A stretch of DNA of 64,000 nt from Octopus vulgaris. Lineage: Eukaryota. Each line of letters starts with the position of its first letter. Within the stretch, counting starts at the first letter, position 1. Shown one piece after another: positions 5,257 through 63,894 of this stretch. The notes beneath the pieces were generated by a model. That model was given only the letters and a program-made list of their open reading frames with translations. It was not told the DNA's origin and ran no database searches. Location of the stretch: positions 26,536,001 through 26,600,000 of the forward strand of contig OX597823.1 in assembly GCA_951406725.2 (NCBI GenBank), read 5' to 3'. Both the position numbers and the translations under genes were made by a program.

Positions 5257-6106
5257 TTATATATCTATAGATATAGTGCGTACTAATATATATATATATA
5301 TATACACGCACATATATATGCATACGTATGCATGTTCAAGTGGGTGTTTACGTGCACGCACATGCATGCGTGTGTGCGTATGTCTGTGTGTGTGTGTGTG
5401 CGTGTGCGTGCGTGTGCGTGTGTGTGCGTGTGAGTGTGTGCATGTGTGTGTGTGTGTGTGTGTAAGGATCATAAAAGAAGCGAAAAACAAAAGATATCAG
5501 AGAAAAAGTAGCTCCAATAAGCGCACTAAAGTCGAACAAATAGGCAATATGTTTAATAGAAATATTGTATTTGAACATGAATGACGATGTGTTGACGGCT
5601 ACAGAGATGGATTTATGGTTTGAAATGAATGAAATGAACGAAAACTATTCAAGGCTTCGAAATTACATGATTGATTTTTCCTTTCGTAAATTATATAGTT
5701 CGATAATGAATGATAAAATATTATAGTCCTGAATAGTATGGATGTCTGTATGTGTGTATCAATGCATGTATAAATACAAGACTGTATACATGTATATCTA
5801 TATGTATGTATGTACGGACGTTTGAATGGGTGCATGCATGTAAGCATGGTCGGACAAATTGATGGACGGACGAATGCATATATGCTCGCATAAATTGACA
5901 AATGTATAGATGTATCCATATATGGGCGTTTGTATATGTGTGTATGTGAGTGAACATTTGTATATATTCATGAATTCATAAACACAAACATACATCCATA
6001 CATAAACGCATATCTATATGTATATTATATTTTCATATGTAAATGCATGTACACCCACCCACATATAACGCTTAATATTACATGTATGTAAGGATATATG
6101 TATACA

Positions 6107-6195
<89 letters not shown>

Positions 6196-6204
6196 ATCTG
6201 TCTG

Positions 6205-6267
<63 letters not shown>

Positions 6268-6270
6268 ATA

Positions 6271-6327
<57 letters not shown>

Positions 6328-6332
6328 GTCTG

Positions 6333-6431
<99 letters not shown>

Positions 6432-6539
6432 GTGTATCTGTCTGTGTATATAACTACTCATTTACATATAGTGACATTGCTGTATATGAGTGCCCAACCT
6501 GGCGGGTTATTTTATAGAACCTAGAAAACCGAAGGACAG

Positions 6540-6650
6540 TTGCAATAAGTGTGTGAATCTGAGAGGGAAATATGTTGAATAAAATCATAATTAACTGATC
6601 CTCCTGTATTTTCTTTTACCCAAATCCAGGAACTTTTCAGTATACCCTCG
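6540..6650 (+). mobile_element. mariner 3'-end fragment
   Basis: KCVNLRGKYVE* followed by a TIR-like cttttcagtataccctcg. Confidence 0.55.
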
Positions 6651-7889
6651 CGGATTCGTTGAATGATTCTATTGAATTTGTGCGTTTGTGTGTGTGCGCG
6701 CGTTGGCTGTATTGCAGGCGTGCGTCAGTGTGTGTGTGTGCCTGTGGATTCACATACACCCACACCAAAATTTTTTTTCCATCAATCTTTCAATTATAAA
6801 GTGTGTGCTTGCATACATATATATAAACACATATAAACATATAAACACACATATAAACCCCTACATTTGTACACACACGCACATATATACATATATTCAC
6901 TCCCACGCACGTACACACACACGCACACACACACATTTACATATATATACTATACACACACACACATACACACGTACAAACACAGACAAATTCACATACA
7001 CACCGACACATATACATATACACAATATATACCTACACGCGCACGCACACATACACATACGTACACACATATAAGCACAGACACACACATACATACGCAC
7101 ACAAAAACATGCGCACACATACGCACGCACACGCGCTAAAAACTCACAACCCCACGGATACACGCATATACATCCATATACGCTTACACACACACACATA
7201 CAAACGCACACATACACGCACACACAACTACACGCACATACACACACACACACACACAAATGAACCCACACATACATCCCATACACACGGCACACAACCA
7301 TACATACACGCACACACATACCTACACGCACACAATTACACATACATATATATACACACACACGCACGTACAAGCACACACGAACACATACACTAAGTTA
7401 AGCACAGTTACTCGCTACACACCCAAACTCCACGCATACACACAAAAACACACACATACACACATACTACAAACAAAACACACGCACGATACATATACAT
7501 ACACGCACACACACATAACTCTTTGTTTTTGACCTGCGATTGGACCCAAAACACCACTCCTTAATTCTTACTACTGGCCTGCTAGCCAGTTGTTTGCCAT
7601 ACACATACACACACACACACGCACACACACACACACACGCACACACACACGCACACACACACACACGTGTCATCATTGCATACATACACACACACGCGCA
7701 CACGCTGACCTCCCCGCACGCACTACATCCACACACATTCCCCCCTCTCACTTTCTTTACCATACTGTCTTTGATATAACTCTCCTGTCTTTAAAAAACA
7801 TTATTCTTACACTTTTACTACTTCCGTCTTTCAGTATGTGACCTCGTCTGTACCACTAGCGATTTTTTCCCCTGCCTTCCCTTCTCCTG

Positions 7890-7922
7890 TTTCCGACGAA
7901 GAGCTCCGCTCGAAACGTCAAA
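7890..7922 (+). ncRNA. Minimal hammerhead motif (U4C variant) in a PLE terminal-repeat remnant
   Basis: uuu CCGACGA a gagc ucc gcuc GAAA cg UC aaa, followed by a T-rich tail of about 95 nt and (TA)n. Confidence 0.55.
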
Positions 7923-8012
7923 TTCCCTTCTTTCCTGAGCGTCCAATAATACTTTATTTGTTCCACGTCCTTGCGTTGTTGTGTTTTTTTGTTTTTGTTT
8001 TCTTGTTTGGAT

Positions 8013-13445: not shown

Positions 13446-13534
<89 letters not shown>

Positions 13535-13572
13535 TGTACACGCACACACGCGTGCGCGCGCATATATATATA

Positions 13573-13812
13573 TTCTTTTACTCTTTTACTTGTTTCAGTC
13601 ATTTGCCTGCCCTCACGTTGAAGCAACTAATCGATCCAATGACTTATTCTTTGTAAGCGTAATACTTATTCTATCGGTCTCTTTTGTCGAACCGCCAATG
13701 TATAGGGACGGAAAAACTCCAAGATCGGTTGTCAAGTGACTATGGCGGGGGAGGACAAACACAGACACACAAACATATACGCACACATACACACATGTAT
13801 ACACACACACAG

Positions 13813-13845
<33 letters not shown>

Positions 13846-14174
13846 TACGACGAGCTTCTTTCAGTTTCCGTCTACCAAATCCACTCACATGGCTTTGGAC
13901 GGCCCGAGGCTATAGTAGAAGTCACTTGCCCAAGGTGCCACGTAGTGGGATTGATCCCGGAACCATGTGGTTCGTACGCAAGCTACTTATCACACAGCTA
14001 CTCCTACGCCTGGCTTACAAATATATATATATACGCCAGGCTTCTTTCAGTTTCCGTCTACCGAATCCACTCACAAGGCTTTGGTCAGCCTAAGGCTATA
14101 TTAGAAGACACTTGCCCAAGGTTCCACGCAGTGGGACTGAACCCGGAACCATGTGGTTGGGAAGCAAGCTTCTT
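13573..14174 (-). mobile_element. SINE family 1: full copy 13573-14012 plus an interrupted copy 14030-14174 whose head resumes at 16880-16918
   Basis: SINE sequence is collinear across the A and B insertions. Confidence 0.85.
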
Positions 14175-14655
14175 TATTTCATTATATTTGCTATAAAGGC
14201 AGTACATAGCGTAAAGTAGCTTTGCGGGCTGGACAAGGACATTAATGAAATGAATGATAATGAAAGAAAGATGATAAGGATGGGAGAAGACAAGAAGCGC
14301 CCGCCGACTTCTGCTTCTCTAAAACATTGCTCTTTAAAACCAAACACAAAACGAGGTATTAAACCTCTTACAACTTTTCAATTTTTGGACTTAACAGTCC
14401 ATTACAAACATCAACATAGTTCAATAATTACATATAATATATATAAATACAATACATGAAGCCCTCCTCTCAGACCAGGCTTACGCTTCCCTTAGGTAAT
14501 GCTCCAGCTCTAGGTCGGGGCCCCAGAAGGCGTATCTAAACATGTCCTTTGAGAAGGTGTTCATTACCCTGACCATTGCGACATCCGATATGATCTTCGT
14601 AGTCACCTGCGAAAGCCACTCCTCGTCTCTGTCCAAGGCATGGGCTCCTCTCTCC
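14175..14655 (-). mobile_element. 5'-truncated ORF1-only non-LTR element (copy A), inserted in a SINE head
   Basis: Flanked by the direct repeat gggaagcaagcttctt (14159-14174 and 14656-14671); its 3' UTR matches 63290-63436; residual frame GAHALDRDEEW...YLREA is distantly similar to the C-terminus of the copy B ORF. Confidence 0.75.
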
Positions 14656-14671
14656 GGGAAGCAAGCTTCTT

Positions 14672-16879
14672 TATTTTATCAAATTGGCCATGGAGGTCTT
14701 ACAATCACAGGTTCTTTTCTTACATAAAAATAAAAAAGTCAATCAAACATCAAAAATACATTATCACTTTTTGAGGTCTCTTTCTTTCTTTTGTTATCTT
14801 ACCGTTTTTACCAATATATAATATATATATATATTTATGTGAATTTGAAGGTAAAATATCTAGCCGCCTGTACAGCAGACCACGTTGACAGACGGGAGTT
14901 CAGAAAGAAGGCGAAGTGCCTATTATCAAATGTTTGTGTCACACAGTGCCACGATTTATAGCTCACCATCAACATCGCTTGTGCCCACATCCTCCTCCAT
15001 CCTCAACGCCTCATTCAAGATCAGAGCGGGTTCCGTGTCAGCGTTGCCCGGGTACAAGAGATATTTCTCATTGAGCCCCTTCAGCCTAAACGTCACGTCA
15101 AACGTTATGACCTCCACAGCTATATGCGGAGGCCATTCGGGATCCTGTGTGAAGGCTAAAGGTGCTCCCTTATGGTGCTTTTCCACCACCTTTTCAACCT
15201 CTCCGCCTCTATAGAAGAAGAAGATCAATAATTCGTCTTCCTCCGGGGGAGGTATATCTAATTCTTCCGTTGGCGGCACAGTTCTCGCCAACGGTGTCTC
15301 TTCTCCTGCCGGTGGCACAACCCCAACCGATGTAGTTCCGGGACATTCCGGTACTATGTCACCGAATGCCGGCAATGTCCCATTTCCTCTTCTTCTTTTT
15401 TTTCTTTTCAACTGAGGAAAGATGTGTCTCCTCCGTGACCGGGAGATTCGCCTCCCCATCCTCATCCTTAGGATCCTTCGGTGAGCACCCATTGTTGCTC
15501 ACCTTCTTCCTCTTGCGGCCCCTGTTTGAGGAGTCCTCTGCCTCCTCGGCCGCCTTCATTCCCTCCTCTACAGAGGTCTCACTCAACTGCTCCGGGACCT
15601 TATTTTGTTCCTGGGGACAATTTTTCACTGATAAAACCTGGTGGGGTGACTCTGATGAATCACCGGATACCTGCACCCGGCCATTTAAAAAAAAATCTGG
15701 AAAAACCAGATTGGCTGATTGAGTCCAAAGGGTCAAAACAGCTTTTGACCCAACCCAATCAGCTGCAGGAAAAACTTTCACATTAAGGAGCTTGGCTCCG
15801 CTGCCACCCAGATCCCGGCGGATAGTCTCCTCTATCCACTCGGGTTTTATCCCGGGTGGCAACCTGCAGACCCAAGCTTTCGTCAACCTCCTCCCACAAT
15901 ACGTGGGAAGAAACAAAATTTCCTCGCCCTCCAAGGGCTGACTCGCAAATTTGCGAGCCTCTTCAGGGGTATCAAATAGCAACCACACCGTTGCGTATTT
16001 GACACCCCTGGAAATGAATTTAATTGTTGGCAAATACTCCGCCAACTCCTTTTCAATTGCCGTCTTTTCGAATAGGGCGATGGTGTCGAGTGACTTGGAG
16101 TAGGTTCTCAACACCACCGTCCTATCTTCACGGTCTTTCAACCACTTTTTAGGCGGTACAACCTCCCACTCCAAAACTTTGTCCGTTTTCATTGCCATAT
16201 TTCCCCCTTTTTTTTAAACGGTTCGAAAATAATTCAAAATAAAACTTAAAAAGGGAGAAGAAAAAAGAAATCAAAAGAAAGTCACAACAAAATGGAAAGG
16301 AGAAAAGGAAACAATTCACAAAAAAGAGAAAGTCAAATAAAGTTTAGAAGAAAGAAACAATAGTTCAGAAACACAGCAAAGAAATCTTCCGGCCATTCGG
16401 TACTCCCGGCCTAGGTTGAACCCGGAACGCTACAACTGGAACACAACTTCCACAAAAACTGGTATACAAATTGTTCAATCTTCGGAGGCAAAGACACTCC
16501 CCCAAACAGCAGTTCTCACAATTATCTTAAAATTCTTCAAAAAGTGAACAAATTTTTAGTAGGCATAATACACCCCCAAGCAACAATTCTCATAATTAAG
16601 TGAGAAAAATATTCACTCAACATAAACTACTAACTAGGAAGACGAATACGCGCCCAAACAAAAATTCTCACAATTATGCAGGCAGAACCAGAATTCTGAA
16701 TCCAGTAGGACTTCTTGCCTGTATATAAAAAAAAAATTCTCAACAAAAATTCCCACTGGACCCCAAAAACAGAACCTTACCTTACAGTGGAGCTTCAACA
16801 TTTTTCAATTCGAAACGGTTTTAAAAGCACGTCCCACCGCTTTGGTCCCAAACATCACAATTACTCGCACATGCGCAGT
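14672..16879 (-). mobile_element. ORF1-only (HAL1-like, probably Tx1-derived) non-LTR element, copy B
   Basis: TSD ggaagcaagcttctt (14657-14671 and 16880-16894); about 680-nt 5' UTR; frameshifted ORF spanning 16198-14956; about 280-nt 3' region ending at aataaa; no RT or endonuclease sequence. Confidence 0.8.
14956..16198 (-). pseudogene. Frameshifted ORF1-like protein of copy B
   Basis: Two overlapping frames (279 aa and 178 aa); both have homologous segments in copy C (PPKKWLK, VVLRTYS, FASQPLEG, FLPTYCG, FYRGGEVEK, FTQDPEWPP); RRM-like ORF1 identity is inferred. Confidence 0.65.
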
Positions 16880-17001
16880 GGAAGCAAGCTTCTTACCACA
16901 CAGCCACGCCTGCGCCTATATATTAAATAACCACCGAATATTTTCTTGCATTCCTATTGATGAACTTAGTAAAATAACGTATACTTTTTATTTTTATTCA
17001 G

Positions 17002-17174
17002 CGACGGAACCGCTTTCACTAAGGCCTGGTTCTCCCAGGGCAAAGGAGAAATATTCATGTCAGAAGTACAGTGTTTGGGGTCCGAATTATCTATTTGGGA
17101 ATGTCCATTCAAAAGAGAGCACTTTTGTTCTCATCGTGAAGACGCTTCTGTTGTTTGTAGTGAACGTCGAAATG
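17002..17174 (+). CDS. SRCR-domain gene, exon b (C-half of SRCR domain 1)
   Basis: ttttattcAG| ... |GTaaat; reads DGTAFTKAWFSQGKGEIFMSEVQCLGSELSIWECPFKREHFCSHREDASVVCSERRN; phase 2 to phase 1, in frame with exon a. Confidence 0.9.
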
Positions 17175-17284
17175 GTAAATTGCTTCAATAATTTTCGCCT
17201 TAATTACTAATTACATGAATTAATATATAAAATATTTTAAAATATTTTACTTTTTTGTTTGTTCTTTGTATTCATATTGACCAT

Positions 17285-17379
<95 letters not shown>

Positions 17380-18519
17380 GTAAAATAATATGTGACAATT
17401 ATTCGGTAGCCAAGATAAAACTCAGAGTTTTATCTTGGCTACCGAATAATTGTCACATATTATTTTACACATAAATTTCCTCTATTTACATAATATTGAG
17501 GTCTCTTTCTTTCTTTTGTTATCTTCCCGTTTTTACCAATATATATGATATAATATATATATTTATGTGAATTTGAAGGTAAGATACTTTAGTCTCAAAT
17601 CATGACACAAAACCAGTAATTTCAGTGGAGGGCTAAGTCGATTAGGTCGACCCCAGTGCTCCACTGGTCCTAATTTTATCGATCACGAAAAGATGAAACG
17701 CAAAGTCGATCTCGGTGGCATTTGAACTCAGAACTCAAAGCTTATGAACTTCATTAGCTTACTGCTGTTTCCAGTATCATTTGCGGTGGACTCATAGTTG
17801 AGTGTCTGAATCATACCTTACTGCTTCATCAAAGCCTCAAACATGAAGTGTTCACATTTATTGAGAAACTAGCTTACAGTGGTACACAAATCTCAACCGA
17901 ACCATGTGTTAAATTCTTCATAGACTGGCACAGTAGACCGTAATTCGACATCTCGAGACTCTAATTGAGAGAAGCGAATTTAGAAAGATACGTGGCTGCA
18001 TGGTGTCTATCTTTGTATCACTGCAGAGTATCTGGAATGAAAATCTACTGAAAAATTACCTGCTAAGCGTCAACCGCATGAGACGATATACCGATATTGT
18101 TTTACAGTCTAGATATCTGTATTCCAACTTCAATTTACTTTCCTCTGTAGCTGATTTAAAATGAACTTCAAACCAAACTAATTTTTATCTAATATTTATA
18201 GCAAATATTTGTCTGTATTTTTGTCAGTTTCCACTGTTTTCTTTTCCAATTTTTACCAAATGTAATGTTATTAATATACCTTTATACAGTTTGTAGCTAT
18301 ATGATGCATTGTAATGATGATACACAACAATGTTGAAACAGACCTGATTGAAAATATACACGAATAAATATTGTTGTTGAAGCACAAGTAAATTAATTTA
18401 TAAAAATTCCATCAACAGCTCTCTTCTTTTCATATAAACTAGGCTTTAAGAAAGAAATGAGCTTTGTCACATTCTCTCGCTCTTTCTTTCTCTTTCTCCA
18501 CCTCTCTCTCCATATATAT

Positions 18520-20700
18520 ATGCATATTATATTTTTTATCAGTTTCAGCTCAAAGCTGTGCCCATGCTGGGGCACCGCCGTTTTGTTACTATTATTATTG
18601 ACAACCTCCTTTAATATATGGTATTTGGTGAATAAGGAGTTTGATTTCGCTACCCTCATTTGCACCTCCTGCCGGGAGGTAGGTTCATCTGGGACTCTCG
18701 CCAAGAAAAAATCCAGTTTTGATTTGAAAACACCTACATCACCTTTGTGTAGGTTCCTCAGGCTCTTTGGGAGAATATTAAAAAGCTGTGGGCCTCTGAA
18801 ACTCAGGCTGTTGCAGTAACTGGTCCTGAAGCGCTGTGGCATTGCTGGGATATTTGGCACTGTGCAGTGGCGATGCGTTCTAGCATTTGTGTAGTTTTCA
18901 ATGCCAAAATTTGGTACAATCCCTTCCAGGAGCTTCCAGATGTATATTACTACATATCTCTCCCGCCTTCGCTCCAGAGTCTTAGCTCTTTCAGCCTATC
19001 CCAGTAGCTGAGCTGTTGCAATGAGACGATCTTCTTTGTGAAGCTTCACTGAATTGCTTCAAGGTCCGCTGTTAATTTTACACTGTGGGGTGACCATAGC
19101 TGGGAGCAATAATCCAGGTGGCTGAGGACGAATGACCTCCAGAGGACCATCATGGTTTCCTTCTCTCTGGTTCTGAACGTTTTCAAGATCCATTCAGCCA
19201 GTCGTCTGCACTTTGTCGCAATCCTGGTACCGTGCACTTGGAAAGAGGTATCATCACTCATGTCGATACCCAGGTCCCGCACTGATTTAGGCTCTGGGAT
19301 TGTAATCCCCCGTGGACCAGTGCACCCTGTAAGTTTAAATTCAGTTTTGGACGCTGGTAGCGCAGGACTTGGAATTTTTCAGTATTAAGCATATTATTGT
19401 CCTCAGCCGATCTGTAAACTGAGTTCAACTCCTGATGCAGGTGTGCAACATCGCTGGGATTCTGTACTTTCTGTGAGACTTTCGTATCGTCTGTGTAGCT
19501 TGCAAGGGTTCTTGAGGGCATATCTGAGAGGGCCACTACAAAAAGCAGTGGTCCCGAGACAGTGCTCTGTGGAACACCGCTCACTATTTGTGTTTTCTTT
19601 GAGGTGGCTCCATTGGCCACTGCTGCCTGAATTCTATCTTTCAGAAAGTCATGTAACCACTCTCCAAGTTTTCCAGCTTTACCGAGATCACGCAGTTTGT
19701 GGCATATCACCATGATCCACTTTATCAAAAGCTTTTGCCAGGTCAAGGTATATTATGTCCACATTTGAGTTGTTGAGTAACTACGTCAACATCCAGTCAC
19801 AGTGCTGTAAGAGCTGGGTCAGGTAGCACCTACCTGGTCGAAAGCCATGCTGGGTATCACTCGGCAAGTTGTTTTCTTCAAGGAATGAGATTAGGTTCCC
19901 TCTCACTATCCGTTCCATGAGTTTGTTAATGTGTGAAGTCAGAGAGATAGGCCTTTAGTTTTTGGCATCTGCTCCGCTTCCCCCTTTATGGATTGGGCAT
20001 ATTATTCACTCCTTCAGTTTGCTTGGCAGCCTGCCATTTGCAAGAAAGCTCTGGAAGATAATCTGTTGTGGTTTCACCAGGGTACGCTTACACAATTTGA
20101 GGTCGATTGCTGGGAAACTATCAGGACCAGCAGTTGAGTTTGCGTCCACCTATTCTATGGCTAGTAACATCGTAACTGTATCGCTGGTTATAGGCGAGAC
20201 GGCAAAGAAATCCACTGGTTCATTCACTTGTCTGTGTTCCAACAGGGTGGTAAAGACACTTTTGAACTGGTCATTCAGTACCTCACTGATATTGGTTGGA
20301 CTATCTCTGAGGGAGTCATCCTTTTGGAAGAGGGATCCTATTTTGCCGCGTACTGAGGCTGTTTCTTTGGCATAATAACTTAATGTTTTTTTTATAACCC
20401 AGGCTTCTTTGTCTGCTCTCTCTCCCTCTCATAGGATTGTTGCATGCTTCAATCTCCGTCAGTGTTGTTTTTAGGCGGGATCTTTCAGTACTTTTGGGAT
20501 GTTGGTTGAAGCGATTTGCAACCTTCGTCCATCGTCCCATGAAGATCTTTCTCTCCCTTGGAATCTTGTTCCTTTCTGTGTTGACCTTGTACTCTGGGAC
20601 ACATCTCTGGCATATGGTTTGCATAAAAGACATGAAATATTCTAGTTTCATGCCAATGTCTGGTTTTCCTGCATGTTTTGTTCCAACGTGTATCCTGTTT
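18520..20700 (-). mobile_element. CR1-group LINE, 5'-truncated and decayed
   Basis: RT fragments SGVPQSTVSGPLLF, YTDDTK, DYCSQLWSP and C-terminal FLARVPDEP; many stops and frameshifts. Confidence 0.88.
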
Positions 20701-21702
20701 CTCTGGATTGGGTCTTAAAAAGTTTGCTGTAATTACGTTGATATAAATTTCCAGTGTTACTAATTATATCTGAATTGTTAGAAAGCTGGTTTTACGAGTG
20801 AGAGGACAAACGAAAGAAAATGGCATTCAACACATTTAGTAGGAGTTCCATCTATTAATTAAAATACTTTGATTCGGATCCGTGCTGCTTCAAGTTTCGC
20901 AGGACCCTAAGGTTGAGCCCGACTCTTTCAAGTTTCTGTAATGACTGAATTCAGGAAGTTCAAGATGGCTATCGGATGATGGGCTGCTATTGATACAGGA
21001 AGGTCACATGGTGTTATGGTGAATAATGCTAAGTCGTTAGCGGCACCAGTTTCATAAGAAAAAGGGAGTTTCTTTGATTGCGTGGTTGGACAGGAAATTG
21101 GTGGCGTTACTGTGTCTTGATACGGCAGCGGTAAGGTAGGTGAGTGTATGAGTTTAAATGCGTGCATGTGCGCGTGTGTGCGTGAGTGTGTGTGTGTATG
21201 TGTGTATGCGTGTGTGTATGTATATGTGTGTGGTGTACCCGCATACATATGCATATACGAGAAGTGTGAATGCGTGGATGTCAGTATGTTATTGATTATA
21301 TGGGTGTACGTGTGTGTATGTGTATGCATATGCTTGTCTTTACGTATATGTTGGCTGCTGATATGTTGATATTGGTATATTGGTAGAGCTTGTGAGTGTG
21401 TGTGGTGTGTGTGTGTGTTTGGTGCCTGCCGCATACACGTGCACGATGGGACGGGTTTAGGGTGTAAGTATGGGTGTGTGGGGGTGCTTGTGGGTGTAGG
21501 TGACCCTCCATGCCCAATAGCAGTCCATCATCCTGTAGCTACCTTGGACTTCCTTGAACTCTCCATTCAGTCATTCCAGAAGCCCGAAAGAATCCAGCTC
21601 CACTTAGGGGCCTGTAAAACTTGAAGTAGCACGGAACTGAGTCAAACTGAGTCAATAATAACAATAATAATGATGATGATGATGATAATAATAATGATGA
21701 TG

Positions 21703-27300: not shown

Positions 27301-28745
27301 ACAGTCCAATATTTTGGATATTTTATCAATCCCAAAAGAACGAAAGCCAAAGCTGACTTTGACGGGATTTGAACTCAAAAAGTAAATCTCAAAATATTGC
27401 AGATAATTATTTCTGATACATTAACGATTCTGCTCACCCACCGCTCATCGATTCTCTAATTAATAGCGAGTATTTGACTTTATTTCGCTAGCCCACTAAA
27501 GCCTGAACAATGACATCTAATGCATTTTGTTCGATGTAGCCTAACCTTTTCTAGGACGGACACTGTCTTTATTGTAATTTACTATTAAATCAGTTTGGCG
27601 ATCAATCAATCGAACACTACGGTGACCATCTTACTGCAGTATGTTTAGTATCTAAGTTTTTCAATTCTGTATTTTAAGCACATTTACGAAAGCTTAAATG
27701 TGCTTAAAATTAGATTTGAGTTCGCTGCACAACTATTAGCATTCTGTCTATGCTTTATAAAATTTTCGTAAGTTAAAACTGATTTGCGCATTTACCATCA
27801 GAGTTTATTTGTTAGAGTGGACTCCTGCACCTTCAACTCTTGCATATTGTATTATTATTATTCAACACAGGCCAATGGAACTGACTTTTCCACTCTTTGT
27901 TATCTTGTCCACTATTAGTATTCTATGCCCCCCATTATATTAATATAATTAGGTAAAAGTTTACTGTGATGTCGTTGCTTGAGAATACGTTTTTACTTAA
28001 CGAAAGTCAGAATACTCCGAAATCCAATCACATGTGGTTAAAAGAGAATAAACAAGAAACAAAGAAATGAAATAAACACCACATAAATCTTCTATATTCA
28101 TGTGGAATACATATTACTGTCAATAAAATATTAATTTCTTTATGATAATAATGAAAAGTTAAAAGGAAAACTTCTTTTACATAATAAAATCCCTTCCCAT
28201 AAAGGATCTGTCAAGATGTATTATCAAGAACACATATATTTTCTCAAATGAACTAATCTAATATTACATTATCTGATCTAAACTTTCATTGTAGTAGGTT
28301 AGGTTAAGTTAAATAAGTCACTTAATGGAATATATAAAATATTTATACTGAAAATATGCTTCTGTGTATTTACTGTGCTAGTAATAAACCATAATTGTTT
28401 AATATCTAAAAATATAGAAAAACTATTAAATCACGTTTTGATGCAGGCATGGATGTGTAGCTAAGAAATTCGCTTTGCAATCACATGGTTTCAGGTTCAC
28501 TCCCACTGCACAGCACCTTGGTCAGTAAGTATCTTCTACTGTAGCACGGGGCTGACAAATACCTCATAAGCGACTTTGTAGAAGCCCGTCGTATAATATA
28601 TTGAGTCATCGCATAAGTAACGAGGTTTTTTATACTTTTATTTTGCAAAATTAAGATACACAAAGTTCTATTTTAATCTAAAATATAGTCTCCTTCATTT
28701 TCAACAATGCTCCTCCATCTATCCGGTATATGTACATATGTGTAG

Positions 28746-39254: not shown

Positions 39255-40441
39255 TTGGGTTGGCAACTAAGTTCCCGCTGTTTTTTAATTAAAATTTTTA
39301 AAAGGTTTAATAAGAAATAACAACTAATTAATGAATAATGTATTCATCCTTGTTGTTTACAACTACTTCCCAACGTTCAACAAGGTTTTCAATACCTCGT
39401 TGGTAGAAATCACCCGATTTCGACTTTGATCCAACCAAGCTCTCAATTCTGCATCAGTATTGAATGAAACTCCGCGCATAGCATTTGAAAGAGATCGAAA
39501 GAGGTGGAAATCCGTTGGTGCCAAATCAGGCGAGTACGGCGGGTGTGGCAGCACTTCCCAGCCATGCGTTTGAATGGCTTCCTTGGTCATATTGGCGATA
39601 TGAGGGCCGGCGTTGTCGTGCAGCAGAAGAACTCCATGCTGACGAGTAGGTCTTTTCTCTTGAATAGCCGTGTTGAGTCGTTCCATCTGTTGAACATAGC
39701 CGCTTTGACCGTTTGGTTCCGTTCAAGCAAGTCGTAATAGATAATCCCTTCCGTTTTATGCGGATGAAGATCTTGTTTCACGTGCGGTGTCACTTGTCTA
39801 CCGGGGCTAAGCCATTCCTTACGCCGCTTCATATTGATGTACTGGCACCATTTTTCGTCGCCTGTAACGATTCGCTAAAGAAATCGCTGCTTGTGTCCAT
39901 GAGTTGAGCGGTAACGAGCAAGCAAACCAGCGGAGATTGTGTCTCGTTGATTTCTATAGCAATGTGGGAGCATTCCATTTTCTGTGCCAGTTCCCTTGTC
40001 GTTTGACGAAGATTTTCGTGCAAAAGTTGGTTTCATAGCAGCCAAAGAAACTCAACTGGACGGCCAGAACGAGGTGCATTTTTGAGGTCGAAAGTTCCAT
40101 TTTTGCACTTGGCATACCAATCACGACCGGTTCTTTCAGCTATGGCACCGTCTCCATACACAGCACAAATGTCGCGAGCAGCTTTTGCGGCCTTAGAACC
40201 TTGATTAAAAGCAAAAAGAAATATGTGTCGAAAATGCTCGTTTTTCTTAACTTGACATTCCATTTTAATGATCTGAAAATAAACAAAAATTAACTAAATT
40301 AACTAGAAAAAATAAGCAAAATAGATTCCAAAATGATTCAAAAATAAAATTCTCGAAAAAATAGATTCCAAAATTTAAAAACGCAATAAATTCCAACATT
40401 AAAAAAAAAAAAAAAACGGTGGGACTTAGTTGCCAACCCAA
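39255..40441 (-). mobile_element. mariner DNA transposon, decayed
   Basis: TIRs ttgggttggcaactaag / cttagttgccaacccaa with TA flanks; transposase pieces PRSGRP, LLHDNA and HPPYSPDLAPTDFHLF. Confidence 0.95.
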
Positions 40442-49800: not shown

Positions 49801-51127
49801 CTGAGTACAGAAGATCTTACACAAAATGCTACTTGAGTAATGTTTAAATAGAATGTTTAGAGAATGTAAGAAGGTTATGAACAAAGAAATAATAAATATT
49901 ATAGTGGAACACCAAATGTTGTTTGGGGAAGAACACCATGGCGACGGGGTGATTGATAAGGGTCAGTCTTTTCCACTTGGGTGAAACAAATACCACAATG
50001 TAAATTTTGCTTGAAAGCAAATAAACAGAAAGATCATATATTTACTGGAAAATATAAGATTTAAGTAACGAAGACCTGATTCGTATTTACGTTTTTAGGT
50101 TGAAGCCTAAGCAAGCAAAACTGATTAGCTACTTTTTCATGTCAAAAATAGCTACTAAAACTTCCCCTTCGAGGTGGCACGCCCTATCACCGAAGCTGTA
50201 ACTATGTGGTAGCAAAGTAAAATTCTTAGATTAATAATGAAACAACAATCTTTGTATTGTAACAAACAATATTCTCTCCTACTTGATCCACGACATTCAA
50301 AACCCACCCGTGAATCATAGTCGCTCAGAAGAAGTGCGATGACTCTGTTCTGGAAATCCCGATCTCGCTGATGGTTGTCACATCTATATGTAGTAAGCTA
50401 AATTCTTTAAGCAAGTAACTTTACTTTCAGAGCCACCACAGATCATGTGCATTTATACTATCCGCTTTTAGTATCGCCGTGTTGGACATAGCAATAGTGA
50501 GAGAGATCTCTTTATTTTGGGACCTAAGTCGGCTGCTCTGACGATCGCCGTCAAGCACTGACGGAATGCTTTGTATAGAATTAAGTGGATTAGAGCCTGA
50601 CCAAAGTCAGGTTTATAACTCATTAACTACTATGCATTAATACTAGTTACTTCTGATTTAGGTACCAGCAATTTTGAAAAGAAGGGATTATTTGATACCA
50701 TCTATTCGAGTACTTGATTATTACTTTATTTTGTTGACTCCGAAAAGATGAAAGGCAAAGTTGACCCCAGTTGGGTTTGAACTCAGACTATAAAAAAATG
50801 GAACAAAACTGTAAAGTAGTTTTCCGATGCTTTTACGGCTCTGTACCAGGAAATAGCAATACTTGGAATTGTAGAGGTTATGAAATCAGTCTCACACTAA
50901 ATTTGTTAAACATTTTTATGCATATTTCCCGGATAATCCGAACTAGTTTTGACATAAGAGAAGAATCTCTTCAAGTATTTATGAAACTACCAATAATAAA
51001 ATAGTCTTGATGTGTTATCTATGAAACTACAAATACTAAAAGTAACATTAAAATTGATGATAATGCTAATAAATATTGCTGTTTGTTTTCTTCTTACCAA
51101 AGTTCTATTTTTCTTTCCTAAATTCAG

Positions 51128-51287
51128 TACTGGCAAAGAACATAAGCCAACGCCTGGAGACGGTCCTATATGGTTAGATGACGTGAAATGTAAAGGATGG
51201 GAAGAAAAGATATCTGACTGTGACAGGAAAAACTGGGGTGATCACGACTGCTTCCACAACGAAGATGCCGGTGTTATATGTCAGTAA
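51128..51287 (+). CDS. SRCR-domain gene, exon e (C-half of SRCR domain 2, probably the last coding exon)
   Basis: aattcAG|; reads TGKEHKPTPGDGPIWLDDVKCKGWEEKISDCDRKNWGDHDCFHNEDAGVICQ then TAA; AATAAA hexamers follow near 51395 and 51515. Confidence 0.9.
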
Positions 51288-55868: not shown

Positions 55869-57069
55869 TATATGTAGATTCAGAATAGATATCAATCGCA
55901 TTGATATCATCAGGATTAGCGAAGCTTTTGGGCGCTTCACATTCCTCATTACGAACCATTAACGTTAAAATTCATAATCTTGACAAAGAAGTCGTTGAGT
56001 TCCAAGCAGTGAACCATTTGAACTCCACTGCAGCACATCATTTTAGCTTTCTATGGTAAATAATATCAAATGTATTGTGTTCGACTTTATTACAACGTCT
56101 TGTTAGGAATATTTCACCAATATTCTTGTATTGGAAGAATGCATATATTCAAGAACCGAAGTATTTATCCTTGGGTGTTGTATAATATTTTAGCAGTAAT
56201 GTTATATCGCAAAAGAAACTAATATCTTTATGTGATTTTAAGCTGCCGAATCGTATATGTAATATATTTCAAAGAAATGGGCAATATATTCTATAGAAAT
56301 ATGGCATAATCGACATATTCAATCCTATTTTGTAGTAAAATAGGCGTCACTGCATATATTTTTCAATATATTTAATAGCTTATGCTAGAATTTGCATTGT
56401 AAATGCATAACCTTGAAGACAAGGTGTGATGGGATGTAAGGGCTGAGTTTAAAAGACGACAACCTTTTCGCCGATTTATTCATTTGTATGCATGTATGTA
56501 TGTATGTATGTATGTATGTATGTATTTATGTATGTATATATGTATGTATGTATGTATGTATCTATTTATGTATGTATGTATGTATGTATGTATGTATGTA
56601 TGTATTTATGTATGTATGTATGTATGTATGTATGTATTTATGCATGTATGTATTTATGTATGTATGTATGTATGTATGTATGTATTTATGCATGTATGTA
56701 TTTATGTATGTATGTATGTATGTATGTATGCATGCATGCAAGCAAGCATGCATGCATGTATGTACGTATGTATGTATGTATGTATGTATGTATGTATGTA
56801 TGTATGTATGTATGTATGTATGCGTGCATGCATGTATATATGTATGTATGTATGTATGTATGTACGTATGTACGTATGTATGTATGTTTTGCACACACAC
56901 AAACACATGGCGCAGATGTGGCTTTGGCAAGAAGGTTGCATCCCAACCGCATTACTCCGGGTTCAGTCTTACCGCGTAGCACCTTGAGTAAGTATCTTCT
57001 TTTATAAAGTTAATTTTCTCCGGCCACCTGCATGGTAGCAATGTTGTGAAGAAAAGAATCTTGTTTTGT

Positions 57070-60060: not shown

Positions 60061-61302
60061 CGAGGGGTGTATGAAACGTTTTGAGCCTAACCTAGAAACG
60101 GGGCTGCTAGGTAGCTGAAACAATTTTTTTCTGGTAAGTACAGTCTTTTCAGTGTATTCAAGCTCATTTTCATGATACTGTTATTTTAATTTTTTGTTTG
60201 TTGCAGACTTTTAAATAAACAAGTGTTGAGGTTACATGGAAAATGGAGAAAACTGAGTATCGTGCTGTCATAAAGTACCTTCATTTGAAAGGCATGGCTC
60301 CATCAGAAATCCATGAAGATATGTTGAGATCCTTAACAGACAATGCTCCTTCATATGCAACAGTCAAACGCTGGGTAAATGAATTCCAGCATGGCAGGGA
60401 GAGTGTGGAAGATGATCCCAGACCAGGGAGACCTCCAACTGCAACCATCGAGGACAACGTTGACCTTGCTCTTGGTATGATAATGCAAGATCGTCGAATA
60501 TCATGTCATCAGATAGCCGAGAGACTGGGCATCTCAGCTGAAAGAGCAGACAACAATGTAACAAAAGAACTTGGGTTCTCAAAGGTTTCTGCAAGGTGGG
60601 TCCCTCGCCTTTTGACTCCTGAACATAAATGCACTTTGTTCACGAGCAATCTAGAACTGTTTGAAACCAATGAAGAGAATTTTATTGCTTGTTTTATTAC
60701 TATAGACGAAAGTTGGGTTCATCACTACCAGCCTGAAACCAAAGAACAATCAAAGCAGTGGAAGCACACATCTTCTCCTACCCCAAAGAAGGCCAGGGTC
60801 ATTCCTTCAGCTGGCAAGGACATGGCGTCAGGTTTTTTCTGATTCTCAAGGTGTCTTGCTGATCGATTATCTTGGAAAGGGTCACACCATGACAGGACTG
60901 TATTATTCTCAGTTACTGAAACGCCTCCGGGAAGCTATCAAAGAAAAAAGGCCGGAGGAGTTCTTTTTCATCACGACAATGCTCCAGCCCACACCTCGTG
61001 ATTGTGGATATGAACTTGTTCTCCATCCACTTTATTCACCAGACTTAGCCCCCACTGACTTTCATCTATTCCCCAAAATGAAAAAAGCCCTGGCTGGTCG
61101 CCATTTTACCAATGATACAGATGCTGTAGGAAGTTTCTTGGAGTCTCAAACAAAAGAGTTCCTCTACGCCAGGATAATGGCACTTCAGTACCGCTGGAGA
61201 AAGTGTTCAGCCATCGAGGGGGACTATGTTGAAAAATAAATCATCAGAAGTCTTGTACTGTTTTGTATTTTTTGGGGCTCAAGACTTTTCATACACTCCT
61301 CG
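60061..61302 (+). mobile_element. mariner DNA transposon (irritans-like), decayed
   Basis: TIRs cgaggggtgtatgaaa / tttcatacactcctcg with TA flanks; WVPRLLT, TIDESW and YSPDLAPTDFHLF in split ORFs 60243-60842 and 60856-61239. Confidence 0.95.
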
Positions 61303-61448: not shown

Positions 61449-61497
61449 AAATAGAATAAGGCGCAGAAGTGGCGGTGTGGTAAGTAGCTTGCTTACC

Positions 61498-63436
61498 TCA
61501 TTGTGCATGAGCGAGACAGAATTGTGTTTGACACCGAAGCGGCAAGACGTGCTTTTGAAGACGTCTTAAATTGAAGACTTTTGAAACTTAGCAGCAAGGT
61601 AAGACTTTCTTCTGTCTTGTGAGAGCCTGTTGTAATTCGCGATTATTTTTAAAAACAAGAAGTCCTCACTAGACTGTAGTCTACCTGAGGTTGAGTGAAA
61701 ATATTTATTCACTTAATTGTGAAAATATTTATTCATTTAATTGTGAAAATTATTGGTTTGGTGGGCGTATACTGCCAAAAATTTTTTTGTCTGAAAATAG
61801 TGTTTCAACAATATTGTTCCTGTCAAGGAGTACCTAGAAGAAAATTGAAATGATTTTTAACTGTTTTACAATTGTGTTAAAATTTTGGTCTGGAGTACCA
61901 AGTAGCCTTTGCTGTATTTTGAACTGTTGCTCTCTATTTTTTAAAAAAACTCTTTATTGAACTGTTAATTTTTTTCTCTCCTTCCTTTTTGTTTGGACTT
62001 TTTTCCTCTTCCTTCTTTTTCTTTAATTATCTTATATTTTAACGACTGTATTTTTGAACTCTTTAAAAAAACAACAAAAAAAACATGGCAAATAACAATG
62101 AAAAGTTGGTGAAGTAGGAAATTACACCACCCAAAAAATGGTTAAAAGAACTTGAAAGTAAGACGGTGGTTTTGAGGACCTACTCTAGGACCCTCGACGC
62201 CATTGCCGTTTTCAGGAAAAAAGCTGGCAGAATTTAAGCCAGCGATTAAGTTTATCACTCGGGGGGGGGGGGGGTCAAATACGCAACCGTGTGGCCCAGA
62301 AGTGGCCCGTGAATTTGCAAGTCAGCCCCTGGAGGGCAATGAAATTTTCTTTCTTCCCACTTATTGTGGAAAGAGTCTGACGAGGGCTTGGGTTTGCGGC
62401 TAGCCACCCGGATTTCATTCCCAGTGGATAGGAGATACTATCAACCGGGGCCTGGGTGGCAGTACCACCAAGCTCCTCAGCGTAAATATTCTGCCTGCAG
62501 CTGACTGGGAGGGGTAAGTCGGAGACATGATGCCGGAGTGTCACGGAGCATCGTCGGTTGTGCCACCGGAGGGGGGAGACACCATTGGCGGGAATTGTGC
62601 CGCCAACGGTAAAATTGACCCCCTAGGACCCGGAATACGATGAACTGTTGATCTTCTTTTATAGAGGCGGAGAGGTGGAAAAGCTAGTGAAAGAACACTA
62701 CGAGGGAATACCTTTGGTCTTCACACAGGACCCAGAATGGCCTCCTTAGATTGCTGTGGAGGTCATAACGTTGCGCGTGTTTATAAAGCTGGAGGGACTA
62801 AAAGAGGAATATCGCTCGTGGCCGGGTGACGCCAACTCGGAGCCCGCCTTGATTTTAAAGGAAGCATGGGCTATGGGGGAGTACACGGACACAAGCGATG
62901 ATGAGGTGGAAAATTGACAAGAGGTTGAAAAGCCTCAGCGTTATAATGTGTAAGAGGGTCAGTAAATGTACTAGTGTTGATTGTATATTGAATATTTCAT
63001 TGTATGTTATTGCATGTTGTTGACTATTAAGTCCAATAATTGTAAGAACTGTAGTGAGAGGTTCAATACCTCGTTGAGGTGGAAAAATTGACAAGAGGTT
63101 GAAAAGCCTCAGCGTTATAATGTGTAAGAGGCTCAGCGCCTCATTTGTAAATGAACTAGCGTTGATTGTATATTGAATATTTTTTGCATATTAATATTTG
63201 TAATGGACTATAAAGTCCAATAATTGCAAAAACTGTTGTGAGAGGTTCAATTCCTCGTTTTGTTTATTCTGTTGAAAAAAGAAAAGAACAATGTCTTAGA
63301 GAAGCAGAAAATCGGCGGGCGTTTTTTGCCTTCTCTTATCAATAGCAACCTTATTTCATCATTCACCTCATCAATGTATATGTCCATCCCACAAGCTATT
63401 CTATGTAATGACTTTATGGCAAATTTCAATGAAATA
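61498..63436 (+). mobile_element. ORF1-only non-LTR element, copy C, inserted in a SINE head
   Basis: TSD aagtagcttgcttacc (61482-61497) and aagtagttacttacc (63437-63451); 5' end matches copy B and 3' end matches copy A; decayed ORF about 62085-62917; internal tandem duplication of about 170 bp at 62903-63258. Confidence 0.8.
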
Positions 63437-63820
63437 AAGTAGTTACTTACCAACCATATGATTCCGGGTTCATTCCCACTGCATGGCACCTTAGGCAAGT
63501 GTCTTCTACTATAGCCTCGGGCCGACCAAAACCTTGTGAGTGGATTTGGTAAACGGAGACTGAAAGAAGCCCGTCGTACATATATATATATGTATGTGTG
63601 TGTATATGTTTGTGTGTCTATGTTTGTCCCCCCAACATCACTTGACGACCGATGGTTGTGTGTTTACGTCCCTGTCACTTAGCGGTTCAGCAAAAGTGAC
63701 CGATAGAGTAAGTACTAGGCGTCCAAAGAATAAGTCCCGGGGTCGATGTGCTCGGCTAAAGGCGGTGCTCCATCATGGCCGCAGTCAAATGACTAAAACA
63801 AGTAAAAGAGTAAAGAGTAA
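63437..63820 (+). mobile_element. SINE family 1 body; its head lies at 61459-61497, split off by copy C
   Basis: Collinear with intact copies once 61498-63436 and one TSD copy are removed. Confidence 0.88.
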
Positions 63821-63849
63821 ACATCGTATGCATATTCATCCCTAAACAA

Positions 63850-63894
<45 letters not shown>

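Follow-up and report, generated by a model that had tools for sequence, protein, structure and literature searches.

The locus and its features

The window analysed here is a 64-kb stretch of Octopus vulgaris DNA. On its minus strand a SINE (host SINE 1) is interrupted by two insertions, A and B, and at a second, independent locus (61459-63578) another SINE (host SINE 2) carries a third insertion, C, with a junction like that of B. The insertions, their target-site duplications (TSDs) and their hosts are arranged as follows.

14023..14174, minus strand: 3' body of host SINE 1 with TSD copy 3 (14160-14174); B box 14133-14143
14175..14656, minus strand: copy A, 482 nt; 57-codon frame and 306-nt 3' UTR; AATA end, then target
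14657..14671, minus strand: TSD copy 2, between the 3' end of B and the 5' end of A; spanned by a contig from run X3
14672..16879, minus strand: copy B, full-length ORF1-only element, 2208 nt; AATA end with target directly after it, no poly(A)
14672..14955, minus strand: B 3' UTR, 284 nt; unrelated to the A/C tail
14956..15400 (start about 15400), minus strand: B coding block 2, in a different frame from block 1; 64% identical to C over 109 aa
15359..16198, minus strand: B coding block 1; two predicted RRM domains (aa 1-167), broken CCHC knuckle region, basic stretch
16199..16879, minus strand: B 5' UTR, 681 nt; 413/542 identical to the C 5' UTR
16880..16919, minus strand: 5' head of host SINE 1; A box 16896-16906; TSD copy 1 at 16880-16894
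61459..61496, plus strand: 5' head of host SINE 2; A box 61470-61480; 15-bp TSD 61482-61496
61497..63436, plus strand: copy C, 1940 nt; B-type 5' UTR and coding region, A-type 3' UTR
63437..63891, plus strand: body of host SINE 2 with 3' TSD copy 63437-63450; B box at 63467

When aligned to five intact copies, the head of host SINE 1 (16880-16919) reaches position 37-40 and the body (14023-14174) begins at position 26, or at 30 on one copy; the two halves overlap, so that no SINE bases are missing. On an intact copy the cut is between bases 25 and 26, a single base beyond the A box. The A and B boxes, which were assigned in the host SINE with what we take to be their consensus, start 43 nt apart, as in a tRNA. 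The head as a whole has tRNA geometry, may resemble tRNA-Gly, and the cut lies within a D-loop-like stretch closed by a 4-bp stem. A preliminary description of this DNA had placed the split between the A and B boxes at gtggt|aag, and the overlap of head and body together with the box positions bears this out. OR1 is a named octopus SINE, according to excerpts of PMC4824008.

The threefold 15-16 bp duplication reported in the same description was likewise recovered: GGAAGCAAGCTTCTT has three exact occurrences on the plus strand of the 64-kb window (14160, 14657 and 16880) and none on the minus strand, and the pair flanking copy A extends to 16 bp. At locus C the 3' TSD copy has lost one base and changed another. 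All three insertions have TSDs of 14-16 bp and an AATAAA end with no poly(A), and among the listed repeats of the window no LTR or terminal inverted repeat was found at any of them. By the length of the TSD and the A-rich 3' end, with neither LTR nor terminal inverted repeat, they are non-LTR retrotransposons made by target-primed reverse transcription. A chance 15-mer was rejected as the origin of the duplications. An assembly artefact at the A/B junction was ruled out by a contig from run X3 (record 17), which covers the B/TSD/A junction (14535-14748) with 0 differences, and by the repeat of the pattern in C.

Three insertions and the parts they share

The coding region of B spans 16198-14956. 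Upstream of it, the 5' UTR contains three imperfect repeats spaced about 75 nt and T runs of 4-10 starting from base 54. Block 1 is 61% identical to Octopus sinensis LOC115225585 and carries the broken knuckle region at about 15690-15620. Block 2, which shows an excess of third-position changes, may encode the C terminus of ORF1 or be a small ORF of its own; its predicted fold has a pLDDT of 46 and it found no match among 45 ORF1 relatives. The 3' UTR contains a piece of another repeat (14771-14858, 94.5% like 17496-17586) that appears to be missing from other copies. After the stop codon 284 nt remain in B and 519 nt in C, which leaves no space for an endonuclease (EN) or reverse transcriptase (RT). 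B thus keeps the 5' UTR, the short 3' UTR and the lack of room for EN and RT first attributed to it; its supposed single ORF is two blocks in different frames with a broken knuckle.

Copy C lies in a member of the same SINE family, shares base and orientation of insertion with B, has its own 14-15-bp duplication and lacks ORF2. Its coding region (ATG 62085, stop 62915-62917) is decayed, with about 380 nt deleted at 62515-62519, and its 3' UTR has an internal duplication of about 175 nt. B and C have the 5' UTR and the coding region in common and unrelated 3' UTRs, and the ORF1-only build is present in both lineages, which differ by about 25-30%. Mismatches between them fall 29/20/54 (p 1e-4) and 23/16/35 (p 0.02) on the three codon positions; judged from this sequence comparison, the coding region is under purifying selection. 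The two inserts are 69-76% alike and the host SINE bodies 110/126 identical. Since the inserts are far more diverged than the hosts and the TSDs are host-specific, the inserts were not copied along with their flanks.

Copy A, which is likely 5'-truncated, has an open frame of 57 codons (14654-14484, stop 14483-14481) and a 3' UTR that is 233/287 identical to that of C. A and B had been described as related tandem copies, which the comparison contradicts: at the DNA level they score 36, below the shuffle maximum of 51 and hence with no detectable similarity, while the A frame matches the C-terminal block of B at a non-significant BLASTP E of 1.9 and is borderline by shuffling (23 and 64 of 3000 shuffles). 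What A has in common with C is the 3' tail and nothing else, and C is its sole tie to B. That A is a plain truncated copy of B is ruled out by the absence of DNA similarity. The 57-aa frame has no homolog among longer proteins, in the PDB by sequence or in the Atlas (best score 0.78) and no counterpart elsewhere in the window or among the 45 ORF1 relatives, and Pfam returned nothing meaningful for it or for B blocks 1 and 2. It may resemble the last helices of L1/Tx1 ORF2, and could be where the ORF2 of an autonomous partner ends.

The ORF1 protein

The AlphaFold model of B residues 1-167 (pLDDT 88) contains two RRM-like domains from residue 14 onward. Foldseek ranks tandem-RRM proteins first for it (NONO, E 5e-4) and VIA the La RRM (Z 9.4, rmsd 2.6, 82 aligned), so the RRM-type ORF1 that had been expected agrees with the predicted fold. 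By sequence, the B protein matches no Pfam family, and the matches of an ORF1 profile to PDB sequences were all to knuckles and not significant (E 0.26 at best). In B the CCHC knuckle is broken, C has lost it by deletion, and in the relative P0001 one of its Cys residues is replaced; zf-CCHC was matched in 3 of 26 relatives scanned, and a knuckle-like pattern occurs in 8 of 45. The B/C protein is accordingly predicted to be an RNA-binding ORF1 of L1/Tx1 type, with two RRMs and with a CCHC knuckle in its relatives.

An RRM plus a CCHC knuckle defines a Type I ORF1 (PMC5203782). Such an ORF1 is consistent with Tx1, though other clades have it too. Mammalian L1 ORF1 is Type II, whereas the B/C protein has two RRMs and the knuckle region, and no Transposase_22-type (Type II L1 ORF1p) Pfam hit appeared at E up to 1. 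The label "HAL1-like" therefore survives as an analogy of ORF1-only build, and membership in HAL1 is rejected, the ORF1 being Type I (two RRMs, knuckle) and not Type II (coiled coil, single RRM, CTD). Scans of metagenomes, by protein and by SINE pattern, and of viral contigs returned no relatives.

Insertion at one base of the SINE

All three insertions in the window sit at one SINE base in sense orientation, at two loci. The SINE family makes up about 7% of the 64 kb, where 13 copies hold the site and 2 of the 13 are split. With 13 sites among 128,000 strand-positions, simple arithmetic puts the chance of C's placement at about 1e-4; the sample is three insertions, two of them from a locus picked for being odd and C found after the hypothesis had been stated. 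The target specificity proposed for the element stands as far as the window goes, and passed an out-of-sample test with copy C in site, orientation and possession of its own TSD. For comparison, the available part of PMC4494074 counts a Tx1 family as target-specific when one repeat type makes up more than 20% of its flanks.

Each locus has a TSD that is a variant of its own host SINE. The variant of host SINE 1 is identical in all three copies and found in none of the 11 unsplit SINE copies of the window, and the variant at locus C differs from it. This fits the proposal that the element re-inserts into a target regenerated by its own TSD.

We consider that B and C represent a Tx1-type, ORF1-only non-autonomous retroelement that inserts at the A-box end of a tRNA-like SINE, with a probability of about two in three. 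The Tx1 assignment is an inference, there being no RT for clade placement. Because the only gene in B and C is for a predicted RNA-binding protein, the enzymes are likely borrowed from another element. Candidate partners exist, as 13 L1-Tx1 families have been active recently in O. vulgaris (PMC13282606, with an L1-Tx1 library of 80 families).

B and C might alternatively be dead internal deletions, or small side branches without ORF2, of an ordinary two-ORF Tx1 LINE that targets the SINE, not having spread as ORF1-only elements. Separate deletions would yield different 3' UTRs such as those of B and C, C has another large private deletion, and the A frame, by the likeness assumed above, may be the end of ORF2. 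The summed contig depth over the end of the B ORF and its UTR is about 20-30 times below that of the best-covered ORF bins, which suggests that most ORF1-bearing relatives end otherwise and that some could run into ORF2. Against this, breaks would have to fall just past the ORF stop in both B and C and leave a clean tail of 200-350 nt, and the B stop-to-UTR junction at 14953 is common, among the matches listed, to at least 10, 9 and 9 contigs in three runs. One contig of run X2 (record 9), with 34 other letters in 271 and thus about 12% diverged, bridges the stop codon into the B UTR. A profile search for fused ORF1-ORF2 proteins, which is a weak test, yielded none of 1092-3115 aa among 5254 candidates, and similarly weak searches for longer relatives turned up no autonomous partner. 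On balance we regard this explanation as unlikely.

The specificity itself could be apparent, a loose L1-like preference for T|AAG having met an abundant SINE and produced a hotspot. The site does begin with T|AAG and is purine-rich, like the consensus nick site of L1 (TTAAAA or YTAARA). SINEs amount to 11.6% of the O. vulgaris genome (PMC13282606), and there are only three insertions, two of them at an odd locus. Yet the 108 TTAAAA and 206 YTAARA sites of the window are all unused, 13 of the 20 TAAGWAG matches are GTAAGWAG, and the site of C, GT|AAGTAG, fits an A-tract preference poorly and was found post-hypothesis. We think a mere hotspot very unlikely.

Equally small credence goes to the idea that the element really aims at a family of tRNA genes, with a D-arm that the SINE head imitates, the SINE hits being collateral on a huge decoy pool. 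The head has the geometry and possible tRNA-Gly likeness noted above, with the cut in its D-loop-like stretch, and Tx1 and Dada elements aim at small-RNA genes (excerpts of PMC4494074 and PMC3706591). Against it, ARAGORN found no tRNA gene in the window, Rfam gave no tRNA match for one intact SINE copy at E up to 10, and both host variants are SINE sequences; SINE heads vastly outnumber tRNA genes and would dominate the target pool either way.

Contig evidence bears both on the SINE target and on the possibility that B and A, or the SINE with its insert, multiplied together as a composite. None of the listed runs is recorded as RNA, although X3 may be. The comparison was swamped by the SINE and covers the best 40 of 724 differences, 15 of 510 joints, 24 of 2448 loose ends and 32 of 233,205 pieces. 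Readings at contig ends use the best contig per run, which may be an allele or an orthologue of the same locus. Among the matches listed, contigs with non-window alleles at 16847/16855 reach at least 16907-16912 in X1, X2 and X8, crossing the TSD into the SINE head. In X1 and X8, those that differ from the window at 14697 extend as far as 14657/14656, and so include the entire TSD. The contigs of these three runs lend indirect support to the SINE as target. Although the summed depth is similar over the 5' part of A and the 3' part of B in three runs (about 6,000-8,000 in X1), a composite in which one old event left behind both the middle TSD and the shared site is highly improbable, since all three TSDs are the host SINE 1 variant absent from the 11 unsplit copies, the C TSD is another variant, the B and C inserts are far more diverged than their hosts, and, among the matches listed, contigs from other copies appear to stop aligning on either side of the A/B boundary, those with A-type alleles at 14655-14657 (X1, X3, X8) and those with B-type alleles at 14656-14657, X2 running further.

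Relation to known elements

The ingredients of a Tx1-type, ORF1-only element with a SINE target each have precedent, in HeT-A, HAL1 and Tx1-Mar/SINEU-3. HeT-A (Jockey), HAL1 (L1) and Ag-Sponge (CR1) are the bipartite non-autonomous LINEs with ORF1 given in the consulted part of PMC5786205, where no Tx1-type case is named. Like B and C, they consist of a 5' UTR, ORF1 and a 3' UTR only, and B and C share with this class an ORF1p-like protein and the absence of EN and RT between the TSDs. HeT-A is both ORF1-only and targeted, as here, and its group forms head-to-tail arrays (10.1101/445429, in excerpt); it adds to chromosome ends, whereas B and C insert into sequence inside a repeat.

Tx1 machinery is also aimed at other transposons: extracts of PMC4494074 describe Tx1-Mar LINEs and SINEU-3 in Mariner-N4_AMi, and Tx1L in Tx1D. 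As proposed for the octopus, Tx1-Mar and SINEU-3 pair a non-autonomous rider with its partner's target, and tandem copies sandwich a TSD of about 16 bp. Their target is a DNA transposon with preferred regions and their rider a short non-coding SINE; B and C, by contrast, use one base in a tRNA-like SINE promoter region and code for protein. Copy C, with its B-type front and A-type tail, looks similar to the R2/R1 hybrid SIDEs, non-autonomous and site-specific elements in which a 3' tail from a different autonomous element sets target and TSD; unlike C, these are non-coding, lie in 28S rDNA and use a ribozyme (both points from parts of PMC3414825). Dada DNA transposons likewise insert at an invariant position within or next to a Pol III promoter's A box, and do so in tandem, but use a DNA transposase, 6-7-bp TSDs and true tRNA genes (PMC3706591, in part); the word "SINE" is absent from the accessible portions of both Dada papers. 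In the literature, Repbase and Dfam aside, we found no SINE-targeted case.

Proposed mechanism and implications

The ORF1-only element would be transcribed by Pol II from its own 5' UTR; a Pol II promoter suggests itself because the T runs there would stop Pol III read-through from the SINE head. Its own ORF1 protein would package the RNA, and the sequence-specific endonuclease of a partner LINE would nick the SINE at GTGGT|AAG. Target-primed reverse transcription by the partner's reverse transcriptase would begin at the AATAAA end, and the TSD would result from a second cut at a distance of 15-16 nt. The TSD and the remaining flank would rebuild enough of the target for a second insertion, making the B-TSD-A tandem two separate events. 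Copy A would probably belong to another family that uses this target and have lost its 5' part; that family may be the autonomous partner itself (ORF2 end and 3' UTR), and the C lineage may have taken its tail from the A-type family. The unrelated 3' UTRs of B and C are awkward if one partner must recognise both.

More tentatively, and with somewhat less than even confidence, we envisage an octopus guild in which an autonomous Tx1-type LINE is accompanied by several ORF1-only riders that arose independently and have swapped tails, its endonuclease having switched to one base in the head of the most abundant SINE. If so, this would be a parasite of a parasite, whose insertions hit a vast dispensable pool and split the SINE Pol III promoter, so that target supply and SINE activity would be coupled.

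The targets of described target-specific retroelements, in the survey excerpts available, are rRNA, snRNA and tRNA arrays, microsatellites, telomeres, DNA transposons and LTR elements. A SINE head, if truly targeted, would be a new kind of target, being dispersed, a tenth of the genome and itself mobile, and would test whether copy number alone, without functional sequence conservation, can hold a specific endonuclease. HeT-A, HAL1 and Ag-Sponge, the few ORF1-only non-autonomous LINEs listed, would also gain a Tx1-type companion, whose retained ORF1 bears on why riders of this sort need an ORF1 protein of their own. If the model is right, an APE endonuclease of new DNA specificity should be there to be found. 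SINE-LINE chimeras of this kind may already sit in octopus repeat libraries.

The split SINE and its two insertions

The preliminary description placed a SINE break between the A and B boxes at GTGGT|AAG, with a 15-16 bp duplication repeated three times, and both statements hold. The arrangement, in minus-strand order at the A/B locus and with the second locus last, is:

16880-16919, minus strand: head of SINE 1, ending in a target site duplication (TSD)
copy B, minus strand: 2208 nt, followed by a TSD
copy A, minus strand: 482 nt
14023-14174, minus strand: a TSD and the body of SINE 1
61497-63436, plus strand: copy C, inside SINE 2

An exact search of both strands of the window found the 15-mer GGAAGCAAGCTTCTT at 14160, 14657 and 16880 and nowhere else; the pair around A extends to 16 bp. 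Aligned to five intact SINE copies, the SINE 1 head extends as far as position 37-40, and the body begins at 26 (30 on one copy); this overlap indicates that no SINE sequence was lost. The break follows base 25, a single base 3' of what we take, from the box consensus, to be the A box, whose start is 43 nt from that of the presumed B box. A 4-bp stem closes the loop in which the break falls, an arrangement resembling a tRNA D-arm; no tRNA was recognised by ARAGORN in the window or by Rfam in one intact copy. A contig of sequencing run X3 covers 14535-14748 with 0 differences to the window, so the A/B junction is present outside the assembly. The split copy itself adjoins another SINE copy, head to tail (13494-14174).

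An independent insertion at the same base

The split-SINE feature is real, and it is strengthened by a separate locus. When the window was searched by BLAST with A and B, copy C came up in a further copy of this SINE; it too interrupts GTGGT|AAG, and its orientation matches theirs. Its 5' TSD is 15 bp (61482-61496) and its 3' TSD 14 bp, with one base lost and one changed. The TSD of C reads AAGTAG, as does its host SINE; those of A/B have the AAGAAG variant of theirs, whose exact form occurs in 0 of 11 unsplit SINE copies. Three of three insertions in the window lie at the same SINE base, C being independent of A/B, in support of the target specificity proposed earlier.

Of the 13 SINE copies in the window that hold the site (11 young, 2 old), two are split, and the chance of a randomly placed C hitting such a site is about 1 in 10,000 (13 sites over 128,000 strand-positions). 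None of the 108 TTAAAA or 206 YTAARA sites in the window is occupied by the element. Copying of SINE and insert as one unit is excluded, as the host SINE bodies (110/126 identical) are much more alike than the inserts B and C (69-76%). All three insertions end in AATA directly followed by the target AAG, with no poly(A).

Copy C also carries a ~380-nt deletion in its coding region (62515-62519) and a ~175-nt tandem duplication (62900-63250) that takes in the stop codon and the first part of the UTR.

Relationships among the three copies

B and C have in common the 5' UTR (413/542 identical) and the coding region, and A and C the 3' UTR (233/287 identical). The earlier view of A and B as related tandem copies of one element finds no support here: they show no likeness above shuffles (score 36; shuffle maximum 51), and the 3' UTR of B is unrelated to the tails of A and C. 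A and B are better regarded as separate insertions, each from a different family, into a single regenerated target.

The 57-codon frame of A has no DNA likeness to the ORF ends of B or C and gave E 1.9 by BLASTP. A protein-level comparison with the ORF ends of B and C, chosen post hoc, is borderline: out of 3000 shuffles the counts are 23 and 62 for end-free alignment, and 64 and 243 for local alignment. There is a hint that the frame is coding; against other copies, 2 of 2 listed differences are synonymous. The UTRs of A and C are 81% alike but the frame is not, implying a tail exchange at the stop codon. A may belong to a distant ORF1-only family, or it may be where the ORF2 of an autonomous partner ends; in the latter case its frame would correspond to the final helices of L1/Tx1 ORF2, to which it bears a putative likeness.

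The B 3' UTR holds ~88 nt of another repeat (14771-14858), 94.5% like 17496-17586, a copy that adjoins an inverted repeat near 17400-17450. The 5' UTR of B has three imperfect repeats ~75 nt apart (16486-16677), and the first bases of B and C resemble a putative GCGCATGCGC-type promoter motif.

The ORF1 protein

The RRM-type ORF1 expected for B is borne out at the level of predicted fold. Block 1 of the coding region (16198-15359) has 45 protein relatives at E <=0.001 in the full library, the best being the Octopus sinensis gene model LOC115225585 (61% identical over 97% of the query). An AlphaFold model of residues 1-167 from 36 sequences has two alpha/beta domains (pLDDT 88). The best Foldseek matches are tandem-RRM proteins (NONO, E 5e-4), with low TM-scores of ~0.3, and VIA ranks the La RRM first (82 residues aligned at rmsd 2.6, Z 9.4), with the match chiefly over the first domain. 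The Atlas returned unnamed eukaryotic clusters (0.93); an RRM_1 cluster at 0.86 is a lead only. Among 26 relatives scanned, zf-CCHC was found in three and RRM_3, weakly, in one; a knuckle-like pattern occurs in 8 of 45, and in B this region is broken near 15690-15620. B is thus predicted to encode two RRMs, a Type I ORF1, which is consistent with Tx1 in non-mammalian animals (reported in PMC5203782) and is not proof of clade.

The single ORF described earlier is divided into two blocks, the second (~15400-14956) in another frame; the relative P0001 ends where block 1 ends, so two ORFs are possible. Mismatches between B and C by codon position (29/20/54, p 1e-4; 23/16/35, p 0.02) reveal a third-position excess in both blocks and with it selection on the coding region. 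No fold was predicted for block 2 (pLDDT 46). The O. sinensis gene model P0002 joins ~45 residues 91% identical to the B ORF start to an integrase-like protein (PF00665); the annotation was probably spliced over an element fragment.

Other copies in sequencing runs

Part of the stretch is present in 20 of 24 runs (11 studies, 4 organism codes). Contigs of four (X1, X2, X3, X8) were aligned at 80% likeness. X1, X2 and X8 cover 30/30 bins with many non-window alleles (88, 112 and 88 contigs at 15124), which indicates a multi-copy family. SINE flanks dominate the tables, which list 40 of 724 differences, 32 of 233,205 pieces, 24 of 2448 loose ends and 15 of 510 joints, the listed joints all being empty-site-like. 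Alignment-end distance was read as inclusive, to the nearer end of the aligned part, as calibrated on X3 records 18 and 24.

Junction reaches are best-contig values and may come from alleles or orthologues of the A/B locus itself. With end distances read as above, contigs that differ from the window at 16847/16855 extend in three runs to 16907-16912 or further, 13-18 nt beyond the TSD and inside the SINE head, and contigs with another allele at 14697 span the entire TSD in two. A-type contigs appear to end at 14655-14657 in three runs; X2 may extend to 14671. The distances at 14732 and 14892 mark off 14772-14853 as private to B, and X2 record 9, ~12% diverged, crosses the stop codon into the B UTR. 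Summed depth, which is not copy number, is similar and low over the B ORF end and the A 5' part; the ORF and the A tail peak ~20-40x higher. This low depth suggests that most relatives have other ends, which argues against a simple picture.

Proposed mechanism and known systems

The inserts have site, orientation, TSD length and AATAAA end in common, and neither B nor C has an ORF2. By general non-LTR biology, the element would be transcribed by Pol II from its own 5' UTR, as T runs from base 54-57 on would end Pol III read-through. Its RNA would be packaged by its own ORF1 protein, and the APE endonuclease and RT of a partner would nick the target and reverse transcribe; target choice is described as set by the endonuclease (PMC4494074). 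A second insertion could re-use the target rebuilt by the TSD. Transcripts of R1-type elements extend into target sequence and base-pair there, and by analogy such pairing may underlie the invariant 3' junction. Insertion leaves the SINE boxes 2-2.7 kb apart and likely silences that copy.

We consider the element, with a probability of about 0.7, a Tx1-type, ORF1-only non-autonomous retroelement inserting at the A-box end of a tRNA-like SINE; Tx1 membership is our inference. It resembles HeT-A and HAL1 in build and Tx1-Mar/SINEU-3 in targeting. The label HAL1-like stands for the build, an ORF1 without ORF2; a HAL1 proper is rejected on the Type I ORF1. The preliminary interpretation is partly right. 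Published accounts describe ORF1-only non-autonomous LINEs (HeT-A, HAL1, Ag-Sponge; PMC5786205, PMC5753468, 10.1101/445429), Tx1 families whose targets are other transposons and whose non-autonomous rider forms tandem copies around a TSD (PMC4494074), site-specific riders with swapped tails (PMC3414825) and DNA transposon insertions at tRNA A boxes (PMC3706591). No SINE-targeted or ORF1-only Tx1 element was found in the literature covered, which also took in PMC8869645, PMC4824008 and PMC8967140 and was mostly titles and abstracts with few subscription papers; Repbase, Dfam, the Tx1 target figure of PMC4494074 or the O. vulgaris consensus library may contain the family. Of 80 L1-Tx1 families reported for O. 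vulgaris, 13, with 421 insertions, were recently active, and the SINE share of that genome is 11.6% (PMC13282606). A guild of retroelements parasitising the SINE in octopus genomes is a tentative idea, somewhat short of even odds.

Neighbouring features

On the minus strand, 18396-20763 is a decayed LINE that showed no connection with A, B or C; it includes a weak RVT_1 hit at 19261-19752 whose E value of 4e-4 misses the cut-off. The young SINE makes up ~7% of the window, and older related heads with an AAGAA variant of the site lie at 28443-28559 and 56909-57006. Mariner-like transposase remnants occur at 39366-40293, judged from translation alone, and 60219-61236, where 60219-60839 matches HTH_48; the host SINE of C lies ~220 nt beyond the latter. 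Plus-strand SRCR-domain exons are found at 16973-17188 and 51000-51284 (Pfam E 3.7e-10 and 1.3e-13), the first ~100 nt from the SINE 1 head on the strand opposite to the A/B locus.
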